This document shows positions 33,761-39,399 of a stretch of DNA of 64,000 bases, piece after piece. Made by a program: the position numbers and the translations under genes. The DNA comes from Eledone cirrhosa (Eukaryota), in NCBI GenBank assembly GCA_964016885.1, contig OZ024743.1, positions 68,820,001 through 68,884,000 of the forward strand. The letters are read 5' to 3'. The first letter of the stretch is position 1. Every line of letters begins with the position of its first letter. The notes beneath the pieces were generated by a model. It saw nothing but the letters and a program-made list of their open reading frames with translations, did no database searches and was not told the origin of the DNA.

Positions 33761-33840
33761 GATATGCAAATTTGGCTAATCAGTGGATCTGCTAATATGC
33801 AGATCTGACTTATCAGCCAGCCTGCTAATATGCAAATCAG
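33761..33840 (+). promoter_or_regulatory. three 33-bp-spaced octamer (ATGCAAAT-like) motifs
   Basis: ATGCAAAT at 33764, ATGCAGAT at 33797, ATGCAAAT at 33830; function inferred only. Confidence 0.4.
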
Positions 33841-33913
33841 GCCGATCAGTCACTGTGTGTTTTTGAAAATAGCAGATATTTTCACTAGCTCTGACAGTTG
33901 GCATGTGAACAGT

Positions 33914-33963
33914 GAACTGTACTGATGAAGGGTGATACCCAGAAAGATTAATCCCTGCAGTTC
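33914..33963 (+). ncRNA. type I hammerhead motif with mutated cleavage triplet
   Basis: gaactgta-CTGATGA-agggtgataccca-GAAA-gattaatc-CC-tgcagttc. Confidence 0.7.
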
Positions 33964-34218
33964 TGTTTACATGCCAACACAAGGGCAAGAATGAAGGGTT
34001 CATTCTACTGACATGGAGTTAAAATTGAGGCTTGTTTGCATATTTGTTATTATTAATATTCGAAAAACTCAGATTACATTTATATGTATATAATTGGTGT
34101 GGGATGCTTGAAGCGTCCGTAAGCAGTAGGCTGTTTGAGCACTCGATGCTCTTACAGAGCAGAGTATGATATCACACAAGAAACGTAGAATCCGTGTTGC
34201 GACCAATACAATTTATTA

Positions 34219-34313
34219 GACATATTACAATCATTTCTCTGGTGACCAGCTCGAGGCACGATCGATGTAATGATCGAACCTGACTCTGAAATCGCAAGGT
34301 CCTCAGATACGTC
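34219..34313 (-). ncRNA. hammerhead with long stem II
   Basis: gacgtat-CTGAGGA-(~62 nt)-GAAA-tgattg-TA-atatgtc. Confidence 0.6.
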
Positions 34314-34346
34314 TTGATTCTACAAAACTCTGCTTCGTAGAATCGA

Positions 34347-34441
34347 GTCGTATCTGAGGAGCTTGCGATTTTAGAGTCAGGTTCGACCATAACATCGATC
34401 GTACGCCGAGCTGGTTGCCAGAGAAACGATTGTAATATGTC
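34347..34441 (+). ncRNA. hammerhead with long stem II
   Basis: gtcgtat-CTGAGGA-(~62 nt)-GAAA-cgattg-TA-atatgtc. Confidence 0.6.
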
Positions 34442-35547
34442 TAATAATTGTTAATCGTCGCAACACTGATTCCCCGTTTCATATGTGATATATATATATA
34501 TATATATATCACATATATATATATATATATATATATATATATATATATATATATATATATATATATATATATATATATATATATATATATATATACATAT
34601 ATATATATATACATACATATATATGCAAAGAATGATGCACAAAGTTGCTATGAAATAGCTTATAAAATACGGTGAATCGAAGGGGAAAAGAAGTTGCCAT
34701 CGGGCGCTATGAGGGTTTGAACTATATATCTCCCACATCCGGGCTATGTTGTAGCATCTATTCACTTCTGCACATCATTTTTTAAAAATTTAACTTCATA
34801 TCCTCAACGATTAAAAAGGCCGAGAGATCATTATGTATATATTCTATTAAGTTATTTTAATCAGTTTATTGTAGAACTGCTACGGTATTTCTGGTAGGCA
34901 ATGGTGATGCAACGTATTTTCAATGTACTCAACATTACGGATATCATCCGTCGTGGTTGGCGCAGTAAACGGAGTAACATACTTAAAACGGCGAGAGAAT
35001 GCCGTACTGGGAGATATGTTGTAAATCCTAATTCCGTGAAATAACTATACATATTTAAATGGTTCAGCTCCATCATACAGTTCTGATGCAAGACAGGCCA
35101 TTCTCATCAGATAATGTCTACAGATTTACAGAAACACTGTTACTAATTTTGTGGAATTAGAATTTACAACATATCTCCCAGTACGGTATTTCTGTTGTCG
35201 TTTTAAATATATATATATATATATATATATATATATATATATATATATATATATATATATATATCATAAATCATGTCTTTAGAATTATTAGATAAAATAT
35301 ATACCGTTTCTTCTTCCAATTAGCATAATTAACCATATAAAAAATCAATTAGACCAAGCTATAAGAAGAAAGGCTCTTATGAAGAAATCTTCGACAAATA
35401 ACCGAAAGTGGCCTCTTCGCGGTGGCCCCAATATAGTATATTTATCCAACATTTCGACAGCATGTGGAAACTGACTAAATATATCATCAACCATACACAA
35501 TTAGGTGTAAAATTAAACTTAGAAGAAATGTGTACATACCGTAATTA

Positions 35548-35626
35548 TATCTCTACCATGGTTTCATCCGTATTTTTAGACATCCAATTAATAGGAATGT
35601 CCTGAGTTAGGATTCATCAGGAGACA
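35548..35626 (-). ncRNA. type I hammerhead ribozyme
   Basis: tgtctc-CTGATGA-atcc...ggat-GAAA-ccatgg-TA-gagata. Confidence 0.8.
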
Positions 35627-35825
35627 AACTCAAAATCAGACATCTAGTTTTTCAACCTGATCGCACCGAAATTAGATTTTAAAATGGCTAAGAATCGCTA
35701 TGTGGCTGTGGTCAAGCTAGAAAGAATGTGATTGGCTGCTTACGGCGGGTAGGCTTGTTGCTAGAAAGCGCAGCCAAATATCGCTAAATTTAATCTCAAC
35801 CTAACGGGAGATTATTAAATGTAAA

Positions 35826-36249: not shown

Positions 36250-36710
36250 TTTATTAAAATAACAGATTAAAGTTTAAGCAAAGAATCGGGAAAACTTAAC
36301 GGGATTTTCTGAAACTAACAAAGTCAATCTGTAAAGCAGAAGTGGATATTTCAAAAAACGTTGCCACCGGGGGAAGACAAGAAGACGATACTTTGGTTCG
36401 TGGAAACGTTCCCTGGCAAAGAACGGGAAAAAACGAATATAATACGTCATTAATAGGAGCGGTGAAAAACAATTACGCGCAAAGACAGAACCACAGTTAT
36501 GGTATTCTTAGGTGGTTCATAGAGACGTTCTCTGGCCAGGGAACGTTTCCACGAACCAAATTATCGTCTTCCTGTCTTCCTCCGGATGCAATTTTTTTTT
36601 AAATATCCATTCTGCGTTTACAGATTGACTTTGTTAGTTTCAGAAGATCCCGTTAAGGGTGAAAGCAGTGATTCTTTGCTTAAATTTTAATCTGTTATTT
36701 TAATAAATAT
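36250..36710. repeat. inverted duplication (arms ~175 bp) with decayed HHR at 36636-36686 (+)
   Basis: agttt-CAGAAGA-tcccgttaagggt-GAAA-gca..tgc-TT-aaatt; same family as 43759. Confidence 0.85.
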
Positions 36711-36839
36711 TTGCTCTACAGTTCTTATATATTTGATATATATTTATCCTTATCGAGCCCTCTTTGGATTTTAGTCTTCAAATTTATTATTATTACTATA
36801 TATATATATATATTGTTATACTTGGGGAGGGTCATATAT

Positions 36840-37072
36840 ATATAGGAACGAGTAAGACCCCGACGGCTGAGCTCAAGAGGTCTCGACGGCTAAGAGAATT
36901 AGCCGTCGAAACGGGTTGAGCCCAGCCGTCGGGGTCCTACTCGTTCCTATATATATATATATATATATATATATATATATAGGAACGAGTTGGACCCCGA
37001 CGGCTGGGATCAACCCGTTTCGACGGCTAATTCTCTTAGCCGTCGAAACCCGTCGGGGTCCTACTCGTTCCC
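36840..37072. repeat. two GC-rich nested hairpins flanking a (TA)n tract
   Basis: ggaacgagt..gaccccgacgg ... ccgtcggggtcctactcgttcc occurs twice, with inner gacggctaa/ttagccgtc. Confidence 0.85.
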
Positions 37073-38114
37073 ATTACCCACTCTACTACCCTAAGTATTG
37101 AGTACTTTGGTGCGTTTTTGTCCATCTGGTTCCTTACCACATTTCCTTCGTTATATATATGTATATATAGATATATATATATATATTCGGGTTTGAAGGT
37201 TCGCAGCTGGTCAATTCCGTATGGTCAATCTTAATTGTTTTTTGACCGCCATATAGTACCTTTAAATTGTAGACATAATCATAACTATTAGATGTATCAC
37301 GCCTCCCTCTACTTAAACAAATCCCCCTCCTGGTTAAATTAATAGTACTGGTTTGGTACAAGGATGGCCTAACGATGAGGGCTGACTTCCCACTGGCGCA
37401 CATGAAGCCTGTTATACATTCCTAGAGTGCTTGGAAAAATTGATTTCCATATCTTTCGCTAGGCGATCTCACTCGGAAGGGCTGACACGCGGTTAGGATG
37501 GGCCGACGGAGCTTAACATTTTTAAACTGTTTAATTTTTAATTTTCTAATTTTTTAATTTTATAATATTAATATTAAATAATAAATTTTTGTAACTTCAT
37601 CCTATAAATCTAAACAAAAATTTAACGTTCCAATCTTCTGCTCACACATTATAACATGCAGACCCCACTATATTTACCTCTGTTATAATATAAACCTCTG
37701 TCAAGATACGGGTCCTTTAGAATACATTTTTTTCGCATTCCTGGCCTGACTAGCTTGACATTAGTACGGACTTTTCTTCCTCTTTCTTTCTGTCTTTCTT
37801 CTTGTAGCTCGACATTAACGTTGACTTTTCTTCTTCTTCCTTTTCTTTCCCCCTCTTTCTGTCTTTTTTAGTGTAGCATGATATTAACGGTGACTTATCT
37901 TCCTCTCCCCTTCTGTTTTTCTTCTATTTGACCGGGAGGGTAGTAGCACACTATAAGCTTTACACCCCCTCACCAGATAGCCTCAAATAGACCGAATAGC
38001 CAGCACTTGCGGGCCACCGGCTAAAGTGAAAGATGCTAGATGGTCGGTCATCCTCAGGACTTTGATTTTCAGCCCCATGGATTTTATCTATTACATTCAT
38101 TTATTATATTTCGA

Positions 38115-38172
38115 ATACCTGATGATATCACCGGATTCATACGGAACCCGGTCACTGAAATGATCATAGTAT
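38115..38172 (+). ncRNA. type I hammerhead ribozyme
   Basis: atac-CTGATGA-..accggattc..gaacccggt..-GAAA-tgatca-TA-gtat, then AATAAA. Confidence 0.72.
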
Positions 38173-38514
38173 AATAAACCTTTCAAGGATTTACTCTAGT
38201 CCAGCCTCCTGACATTTTATTATAATATATATATAATATATATATAATATTATATATAAATATTATATATATTTAATATATAATATATTATAATATATAA
38301 TAAATATAAGTATGTACACGTACATACATATATGTATACAGACGTACAGTAGTATGTATATATATATACATACATGCACACATATATATATATGTACGTA
38401 TGGATTCACCGAACATTTATTATAAGGCTCGGTGTGTTTGTAAACAAACATCCCGTATTAAGCCGTAGTGTCTCGCAACCATCGTTGCTCGTTTGGTCAA
38501 CACTGACAAAGGAA

Positions 38515-38555
38515 CGATGTACTAGTTTCAAGCTTATTAGCTATCGTCAGCAACG
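38515..38555 (-). ncRNA. minimal type I hammerhead ribozyme
   Basis: cgttg-CTGACGA-tagctaataagctt-GAAA-ctag-TA-catcg. Confidence 0.8.
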
Positions 38556-38938
38556 TATACCTTCCTGCCAGATTGTTGAACGTATATACTTACCTTATGC
38601 ATATTAACGGCTGAGTAGCCCAATTTGCATATCGAGTGGGTTAATCGGCCGGGTGCACCGAAAACGATAAACGGTAAAAATGAAACGAAATTTCATTTCC
38701 CACTCTTAGTACGGCTGTTACTTAAATATAAGTATGTACACGTACATACATATATGTATACAGACGTACAGTAGTATGTATATATATACATGCATGCACA
38801 CATATATATATATATATGTACGTATGGATTCACCGAACATTTATTATAACGCTCGTTGTGTTTGTAAACAAACATCCCGTATTAAGCCGTAGTGTCTAGC
38901 AACCATCGGTGCTCGTTTGTTCAACTCTGACAAAGGAA

Positions 38939-38979
38939 CGCTGTACTAGTTTCAAGCTTATTAGCTATCGTCAGCAACG
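38939..38979 (-). ncRNA. minimal type I hammerhead ribozyme
   Basis: cgttg-CTGACGA-tagctaataagctt-GAAA-ctag-TA-cagcg. Confidence 0.85.
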
Positions 38980-39399
38980 TATACCTTCCTGCCAGATTGT
39001 TGAACGTATATACTTACCTTATGCATATTAACGGCTGAGTAGCCTAATTTGCATATCGAGTGGGTTAATCGGCCGGGTGCACCGAAGACGATAAACGGAA
39101 AAAATGAAATGAAATTTCATTTCCCACTCTTAGTACGGCTGTTACTTAAATATAAGTATGTACACGTACATACATATATGTATACAGACGCACAGTAGTA
39201 TGTATATATATATACATACATGCACACATATATATATGTACGTATGAATTCACCGAACATTTATTATAACGCTCGGTGTGTTTGTAAACAAACATCCCGT
39301 ATTAAGCCGTAGTGTCTAACAACCATCGTTGCTCGTTTGTTCAACACTGACAAAGGATAATATATAATATTGATATATTTATTATAATATATATATATT

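Follow-up and report, generated by a model that had tools for sequence, protein, structure and literature searches.

Two units with predicted hammerhead ribozymes lie in the window (the whole 64,000-nt stretch of Eledone cirrhosa contig OZ024743.1 that was analyzed), unit A on the forward strand and unit B on the reverse strand (Table 1). Judged by their sequence, both look like non-LTR retrozymes: GC content is 0.38-0.39, below 45%; monomers are self-paired in predicted folds with z about -6 (-6.1 for B); the longest ATG-ORF is 75 aa in A and 60 aa in B; and the ORF search finds no RT/GIY-YIG frame inside or attached to either unit. Family B, known from 2.5 copies only, has the 5' end of its unit approximately 6 nt past a predicted cut site.

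Table 1. Features of units A and B in the window.
Feature	Coordinates	Strand	Remarks
Unit A: 414-bp retrozyme-like monomer and 33-bp terminal duplication	33637..34083	+	flanks are AT-rich simple repeats
Three 33-bp repeats, each with an octamer-type site and a near-palindrome	33751..33849	+	TRF period 33, 3.0 copies
Flagged 23-mer, in the first 33-bp repeat	33761..33783	+	exact octamer 33764-33771
Second site of A	33793..33804	+	one mismatch from octamer; changed base pairs in 8-bp hairpin stem
Third site of A	33826..33837	+	exact octamer 33830-33837
Type I hammerhead of A	33914..33963	+	predicted cut after 33955; fold z -5.6
Segment 3' of the cut site of A	33956..34075	+	homolog in B: 38818-38942 (-); terminal 14/17 block adjoins the element end
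Unit B: 2.5 copies of 424 bp, head-to-tail	38301..39357	-	TRF; AT-rich DNA adjoins both ends
Type I hammerhead, downstream B copy	38514..38556	-	predicted cut after 38520; score 30, highest null 28; z -2.1
TATA-like stretch, 38 nt before the B core	38582..38588	-	one mismatch from a consensus
23-mer, downstream B copy	38611..38633	-	exact octamer 38623-38630; second TAATATGCA 38598-38606
TA-rich stretch of about 100 nt within the B monomer (approximate limits)	38720..38815	-	position equivalent to where element A ends
Type I hammerhead, upstream B copy	38938..38980	-	predicted cut after 38944; score 33, highest null 28; z -3.3
23-mer, upstream B copy	39035..39057	-	exact octamer 39047-39054; second TAATATGCA 39022-39030

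Family A is high-copy and dispersed. The region 33625-34160 is covered by 6708 contigs of run X1 (a contig count, not a copy number), most of them less than 95% alike, and by 45,949 RAD reads of run X8; runs X4 and X5 contribute just 3 and 34 contigs, respectively. In the window copy, 33637-33669 recurs at 34051-34083 with identity 30/33. Head-to-tail runs exist in the family, as shown by 2159 X8 reads and 92 X1 contigs that continue past 34083 into letters resembling the unit start, and TA repeats are entered at 34092 by 57 X1 contigs. The number of 33-bp repeats varies, with a 33-nt skip in 930 reads (5 starts) and a 66-nt skip in 141 reads (9 starts). Difference counts indicate that contigs from organism B and from organism C (records 9 and 12) retain the second site.

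The hammerhead of A has an 8-bp stem I and a 4-bp stem II closed by A.A. Its window copy is damaged (stem III, and C at position 16.1); the family majority is canonical, with the letters at 33946, 33951, 33953, and 33954 seen in 91-94% of X8 reads. The upstream hammerhead of B has a 6-bp stem I, a 4-bp stem II closed by U.U, a palindromic stem III, and a GUA triplet, and the catalytic core is complete in both B copies. Rfam yields no hammerhead at the gathering score and none among the 150 of 242 E-value matches listed, which are mostly microRNA models on TA repeats.

The 23-mer shared by the units, reported in the initial annotation at three places with 21/23 identity, is found at all of them, and none of 100 shuffled windows has a match; the best ungapped 23-mer between unit A and unit B is 21/23, with a maximum of 18 among 500 shuffled pairs. 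The 39035-39057 copy, however, is a tandem duplicate within the 424-bp array (TRF, 94% matches), so only two occurrences are independent. As annotated, every copy has a hammerhead core downstream on its own strand (core starts at 33922 (+), 38550 (-), and 38974 (-)) and is followed by another TAATATGCA. Octamer sites are inside the unit and upstream of the ribozyme in both A and B, with a distance from exact octamer to core of 158 and 92 nt in A and 80 nt in B. By itself, the octamer shows no enrichment in the window (7 occurrences vs. 5.6 expected; at least 7 in 31 of 100 shuffles). Scans for the motif in public collections turned up nothing pertinent: three matches in prokaryote genomes, none in viral sequences, and seven in metagenomes, of which not one has the unit context and no more than two have a loose core-like string. 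A reading of the 3' half of the motif as a CCAAT box was rejected: intact CCAAT is absent from A, and the family letters lead to a palindrome.

The 21/23 match is partly peculiar to the window copy of A. At 33772 and 33778, where this copy equals B, the family majority has a different letter (88% of raw reads and 98% of contig depth at 33772; 90% and 98% at 33778), and the identity of the family majority with B is 19/23.

The units had been described as otherwise dissimilar, which is contradicted by the segment past the cut site. Here, A and B are collinear, with 64/114 columns identical (56%) and a global score of 68 vs. 39.3 +/- 6.5 for shuffled sequences (p=0.001, 1000 shuffles). Aligned with A, the two B copies reach z of 3.4 and 2.3, and all six other hammerhead copies -0.3 to -2.5; one of 300 random window segments scores as high as B. 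Insertions of family A at 33897 and 34043-34044 coincide with two gaps of the window copy relative to B. Among 12 non-core family-majority changes in the aligned segments, five are toward B, five away, one is neutral, and one faces a gap. Global alignment of the upstream segment of A and B is not significant (p=0.27; local p=0.04), and BLAST with word size 7 finds the motif as the sole clear match between the units. A and B probably represent two families, long diverged, within a single lineage of non-LTR retrozymes.

Each of the four longest exact strings shared by A and B (12, 10, 9, and 9 nt) is an octamer-type core. The exact octamer is expected 0.025-0.027 times per unit from composition and 0.020 times from the rest of the window, i.e., in about 2.5% of such units, and the chance of its surviving 8/8 at 50-60% identity is 0.004-0.017; the joint chance, about 0.02 x 0.01, is uncorrected for how many motifs could have been noticed. 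In simulations with uniform 50-60% homology, p is 0.10-0.64 for 19/23 anywhere in 300 columns and 0.005-0.09 for two exact runs, again uncorrected for choice, the octamer having been singled out after the fact from many possible factor motifs. Of the joint condition that the initial annotation held to count against its claim, homology of the units throughout together with a lack of excess conservation at the motif, the homology is indeed found, and the excess is suggestive only. The octamer cores, located inside the unit, stand as the best-kept exact sequence of the two diverged families; a module common to unrelated units is not supported, since A and B are homologous elsewhere.

We see about an even chance that A and B are diverged families of one retrozyme lineage in which the motif is an inherited internal octamer (POU) Pol II promoter or enhancer. 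A POU protein would bind the tandem octamer sites, and Pol II transcription would start shortly before the hammerhead and continue across the following unit; a monomer carrying the promoter sequence would be freed by two cleavages in succession; the freed monomer would be circularized, and a Penelope-like reverse transcriptase with a GIY-YIG nuclease would copy the circle into AT-rich DNA, resulting in more-than-unit inserts, each bringing its own promoter. The AT-rich target DNA and the 33-bp extension of A are compatible with PLE mobilization, and the window contains GIY-YIG fragments (three of eight frames match Pfam, two at the curated cut-off). The varying repeat number of family A resembles multiplied enhancer sites. 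The TATA-like stretch of B is a weak candidate for its core promoter.

Pol II is preferred here over Pol III because T4-T5 runs lie inside both monomers and neither contains an exact A or B box (consensus patterns); box-like matches that are one mismatch off occur at non-corresponding places in the two units. A repeat with an internal Pol III promoter, of the kind found in SINEs and the schistosome satellite, was rejected on the same grounds, and a sigma-70 promoter scan is not applicable to animal DNA. In predicted folds, the octamer sites are in stems in B and across hairpin loops in A, hence the octamer letters are kept and the predicted fold is not. As a counterpoint to the promoter reading, the second site of A departs from the octamer by a change that perfects the hairpin, and in B the second site is predicted to pair with the first.

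The block might instead have been kept in two related families for a reason at the RNA level, as a circular-RNA hairpin or protein-binding site with a role in stability, export, or recognition by a Penelope-like protein; the octamer would then be incidental, and transcription due to read-through, as favored by a review (PMC7761336). Every 33-bp repeat of A is predicted to fold as a hairpin (z -4.4), and so is the module of B (z -2.4 for the 38611-38633 copy, and -2.6), where the second site is complementary to the first and pairs with it; the mismatch in the second repeat of A completes an 8-bp stem, and the two family-majority changes in the motif together with the one difference between the B copies retain pairing via G.U (by hand). 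Structure alone, however, would allow compensatory change, and 11 letters are identical although the octamer has other predicted pairing partners in A than in B; moreover, tandem near-palindromes fold irrespective of the importance of the fold. We consider an RNA-level role unlikely, if worth keeping in mind. Neutral inheritance, with the motif being simply the best block of families with 50-60% identity over their whole length, made sharper by two substitutions in the window copy, agrees with the homology outside the motif, the 19/23 identity of the family majority and its simulated p, and the presence of another block (14/17) 3' of the ribozyme. That the longest exact matches are all on the exact octamer and its repeat, at the low uncorrected joint chance given above, and that the octamer is the one motif with precedent in hammerhead satellites make chance preservation rather unlikely.

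The poor alignment of the upstream segment and the BLAST result would also be expected if A and B were unrelated retrozymes that gained the octamer module by exchange or convergence. This is hardly credible in view of the collinear post-ribozyme alignment, specific to B among the hammerhead families of the window, and of the family A insertions that fill gaps relative to B. The module could also be the distal portion of a genuine snRNA-type promoter, i.e., an octamer with a SNAPc-bound proximal element, in the style of newt satellite 2, whose promoter includes an octamer. An octamer is present here too, and 33850-33869 of A bears a loose resemblance to a vertebrate proximal element. This stretch has no counterpart in B, where merely about 45 nt separate the second site from the core, and between second site and core A and B show weak identity only and no shared block. 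No more than 80-158 nt separate the octamers from the core. Human snRNA genes are described as having their octamer between -250 and -170, with the proximal element between -70 and -40 (PMC9652321). The snRNA-type architecture initially proposed is not supported, and we regard it as very unlikely.

Nor is a general link of the octamer to hammerheads and PLE pLTRs supported in the window. The annotated ATGCAAAT at 49201-49208 (-) is present, at a frequency compatible with chance, and is otherwise unlike the units; no exact octamer occurs in the 300 nt upstream of any of the window's eight Penelope-type hammerheads. A tie of this octamer and of TAATATGCA at 48901 to the units was dropped because there is no further similarity and a nearby core-like string has a score of 16, within the null. 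Neither A nor B resembles any of seven regions at PLE ends in the window (z no higher than 1.0).

Metazoan non-LTR retrozymes, as described in Cervera and de la Pena (2020; PMC7229834) and in a preprint by Li, Clavereau and Pollet (2026; 10.64898/2026.07.22.740005), share with A and B non-coding tandem units, GC below 45%, one type I hammerhead per unit, short stems II and III, self-paired monomers, and co-occurring PLEs; the U.U at the base of stem II of B is as in axolotl HHR_Amex2 (PMC7229834). Unlike these, A and B are slightly longer (414 and 424 bp vs. 350-390 bp for mussel units in these sources), are known here from sequence, and have an octopod-like host. They also have a conserved, multiplied octamer module, whereas animal retrozymes seem to be without promoters or conserved motifs according to a 2020 review (PMC7761336), which proposes read-through because no promoter is apparent. 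The words "promoter" and "octamer" are absent from the main text of the preprint (10.64898/2026.07.22.740005).

With hammerheads of PLE pLTRs (PMC4209133), the units share the type I topology, AT-rich insertion sites, and the palindromic stem III of B, and the short terminal extension of A resembles the 30-40-bp PLE tail (Cervera and de la Pena, 2014; PMC4209133), but stem II is 4 bp in A and B vs. 7-8 bp in PLE-type cores. Newt satellite 2 (Epstein and Gall, 1987) likewise consists of hammerhead tandem repeats, with an internal snRNA-type Pol II promoter (Coats, 1994, as cited in PMC2220036); the units, likened to it by description, differ in showing no shared proximal element and in carrying two to three sites of octamer type, set in a 33-bp repeat that has a near-palindrome. 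For the schistosome hammerhead satellite, PMC2220036 cites Ferbeyre (1998) on an internal Pol III promoter; A and B differ from it by their internal T runs and by having no exact box.

Animal retrozymes are transcribed abundantly in every tissue tested. Newt satellite 2 has stood as an old exception to the promoterless view of them, and an octamer module kept in two diverged families of a distant phylum offers a direct test of retrozyme transcription; we see it as a modest lead. Should the promoter reading fail, an ordinary pair of new retrozyme families is left. Should it hold, constitutive expression would be explained, and a ribozyme retroelement could disperse transcription-factor sites. 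That animal retrozymes generally carry an octamer-driven Pol II promoter, kept or re-invented from molluscs to salamanders, is a doubtful extension, rather improbable on the present sequences. If true, it would imply a general design, a circularly permuted unit in which every insert supplies the next promoter, tuned by the 33-bp repeat count, and thousands of family A copies would strew clusters of POU-factor sites over an octopod genome.

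The octamer-containing 23-mer recurs at all three positions proposed in the initial annotation. Those at 38611 and 39035 are members of a single tandem array, which leaves two independent occurrences, one in each of the retrozyme-like units A and B. The best ungapped 23-mer between A and B is identical at 21 of 23 positions (maximum 18 among 500 shuffled pairs), and the 23-mer has no match across 100 shuffles of the window. The bare octamer is not enriched there (7 observed, 5.6 expected), three exact copies falling in the 62 kb outside the two units. Unit B contains two complete hammerhead cores (scores 33 and 30; top of five shuffled windows, 28); on its 5' side it begins about 6 nt past a predicted cut site, and AT-rich DNA adjoins both ends. 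The monomers of both units each fold better than 100 of 100 shuffles (z −6.1 for B and −6.3 for A). The Rfam search reported no hammerhead, hence the ribozyme calls rest on our own descriptor and folds.

Coordinates of units, motif copies, ribozymes and neighbouring features in the window
Feature	Position	Strand	Description
Unit A	33637–34083	+	414-bp monomer with 33-bp terminal duplication
Motif in A	33761–33783	+	Repeat 1 of three 33-bp repeats
Octamer sites of A	33764, 33830; 33797		Exact; one mismatch
Hammerhead of A			Stem I 8 bp; stem II 4 bp, A.A closing; C at position 16.1 in this copy
Reverse octamer of A	34030–34047	+	3' of ribozyme; one mismatch in this copy
Unit B	38301–39357	−	2.5 copies of 424 bp
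Motif in B	38611–38633, 39035–39057	−
Hammerhead of B			Stem I 6 bp; stem II 4 bp, U.U closing; palindromic stem III; GUA triplet
TATA-like stretch of B			38 nt 5' of core
5' splice-site word	38589–38597, 39013–39021	−	Perfect; directly 3' of second site of B; absent from A
Penelope-type hammerheads, first family	26564, 28249, 40722	−, +, +	Long stem II; CCAAT 127–128 nt 5' of core in 3/3
Second family	28766, 29461, 29483	+, −, +	Last two back to back by inverted duplication (29355–29589); CCAAT or ATTGG 84–135 nt upstream in 2/3
Third family	43994	+
Fourth family	38119	+	180 nt from B array end
Weaker hammerhead-like strings	5522, 8146, 51693, 52927	+, −, −, +	Not clearly above null
Paired octamer-like words	49200–49222	−	One exact, one mismatched; decayed PLE-like 3' region
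TAATATGCA	48785–48905	−	About 80 nt 5' of decayed core-like string; end of PLE-like 3' region; score within null
Non-LTR retrotransposon frame remnants	16069–17358; 17864–20362	+; −
SINE-like 180-bp repeat	6392–6622, 8600–8779, 10401–10455, 13466–13701, 18940–19242, 51971–52156, 53520–53885		About 10 copies
Several long palindromes, MITE-like or fold-back	34169–34491, 34979–35210, 35818–36234
Same (continued)	36845–37071, 56617–56837, 31533–31618

Four runs were mapped to 33625–34160 at 80% likeness. Family A is large, with 6708 contigs in X1, 3 in X4 and 34 in X5 (two other organisms), and 45,949 of 12.5 million RAD reads in X8, a count in which RAD over-represents copies that have a cut site at 33970 and which is not a genome share. 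Head-to-tail arrangement is seen in at least 2159 X8 reads and at least 92 X1 contigs, which pass 34083 into letters resembling the unit start; TA repeats follow at 34092 in at least 57 X1 contigs. Skips of 33 nt (at least 930 reads, 5 starts) and of 66 nt (at least 141 reads, 9 starts) show that the repeat number varies among family A copies. Four stem III and core letters differ from the window copy in 91–94% of X8 reads, and the majority letters give a canonical hammerhead core with a GUC triplet. In two spanning contigs, X4 record 9 (9 differences) and X5 record 12 (4 differences), the totals equal the listed variant rows, hence the octamers there are probably intact. Loose-end letters in at least 971 X8 reads give an exact reverse octamer within a hairpin at 34030–34047.

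The two units had been described as otherwise dissimilar, which does not hold: their post-cleavage segments are collinear (64 of 114 columns; global score 68 vs. 39.3 ± 6.5, p = 0.001; local p = 0.023), and the alignments indicate that A and B are related. The post-cleavage segment of A scores z 3.4 and 2.3 with two B copies and below 0 with six other hammerhead copies; one in 300 random segments reaches this score. Insertions in family reads coincide with the two gaps that this A copy has relative to B, one after 33897 and the other at 34043. The likeness is weaker between motif and core (global p = 0.012, local p = 0.23), and for the upstream segment the global score falls short of significance (p = 0.27; local p = 0.04). 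Family variants were compared with B at 24 of 40 listed rows, end rows and low-depth rows being left out. Twelve rows outside the core reach a share of at least 0.7 in aligned segments: five change toward B, five away, one is neutral, and one faces a gap; all five toward-B rows fall among the seven rows of the two ribozyme-adjoining segments. The three core rows of the family majority all change to the letters of B, which function alone would explain.

Two of the away-from-B rows, 33772 and 33778, lie within the motif. In X8, 88% and 90% of reads, respectively, differ from this copy at these rows, shares that may include reads from other 33-bp repeats; in X1, 98% of the depth differs, and the spanning contigs give the same letters; hence the family-level match is 19/23. 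The window copy could represent an older subfamily with ancestral letters kept. Simulations with uniform identity of 0.5–0.6 across 300 columns yield a 19/23 window in 10–64% of trials, 21/23 in 0.4–8%, and a run of 11 close to one of 9 in 0.5–9%; taken alone, these block statistics are only suggestive of motif conservation. The placement of the four longest common strings (12, 10, 9, and 9 nt), every one an octamer-type core, adds weight for special conservation. About 2.5% of such units would be expected to contain an exact octamer, and survival of 8/8 letters has a probability of 0.4–1.7%, both values before any correction for the motif's having been picked among many possible ones. Of the alternative posed initially, homology throughout with no excess at the motif, the homology is found, and the excess is suggestive only; the motif is real, and somewhat overstated by this copy.

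The octamer is not a general hammerhead feature: the 300 nt upstream of the eight Penelope-type copies contain no exact octamer and, for two copies, a one-mismatch octamer (background 0.40 per 300 nt). No exact octamer was found upstream of six weaker hammerhead candidates either. A decayed frame resembling a Penelope-like element (PLE) has, in its 3' region, the octamer at 49201 that was assigned earlier to a PLE pLTR, and the site has no other likeness to A or B (z −0.3 to 1.0). Metagenome, viral, and prokaryote motif scans of public collections yielded no relatives.

We favor, with about an even chance of its being right, a Pol II promoter or enhancer that is internal to the unit and was inherited. 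The module lies inside the monomer, is retained in sequence between A and B, and varies in copy number. A POU protein would bind the octamer sites, and transcription would start shortly 5' of the hammerhead core, where B has its TATA-like stretch; two cleavages would free one monomer, which may then be circularised, and a PLE protein may copy the circle into AT-rich DNA. PLEs are described in terms with which the 33-bp extension of A and the AT-rich targets agree (PMC8557442, PMC11167929). The main rival is that an RNA hairpin may be the reason for motif retention: each module is predicted to fold, the second site of B to pair with the first, and the mismatch in the second site of A to complete a stem, but the octamer letters would pair with different partners in A and B.

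Other promoter types were also considered. The newt satellite 2 promoter is said, in work attributed to Coats et al. of 1994, to contain an octamer, and the initial annotation cited it as an snRNA-type promoter when proposing a conserved internal POU/octamer module. For A and B an snRNA-type promoter is not supported: in the human arrangement the octamer occupies −250 to −170 and a proximal element is required at −70 to −40 (PMC9652321), and B lacks the only candidate proximal stretch, that of A. Pol III was checked with A- and B-box consensus patterns; both monomers contain T4–T5 runs and no exact A or B boxes, which argues against Pol III producing the full multimer. The splice-site word of B matches the 5' consensus AG/GTAAGT. 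PLE pLTRs are described as having introns that overlap their promoter (PMC8557442).

The surroundings are microsatellite-rich animal DNA (141 rows in the tandem-repeat scan of the window), with broken reverse-transcriptase and GIY-YIG frames. Three of eight frames tested match Pfam GIY-YIG, two of those reaching the curated cut-off; among 44 relatives of one GIY-YIG fragment, the single one listed under an organism name is an Octopus sinensis protein, which aligns over 42% of the query with 75% identity. The host is on this ground probably octopod-like.

No report of octopod retrozymes, or of octamers in animal retrozymes, was found in the literature searched, chiefly recent open-access papers. 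A mapped promoter is reported for a plant LTR retrozyme (PMC12029980), and the supplement of PMC7229834 holds retrozyme sequences of many invertebrates and may include cephalopods or such motifs. A and B are two related retrozyme-like families of a known kind of element, with the multiplied octamer module as a plausible, testable variant feature.
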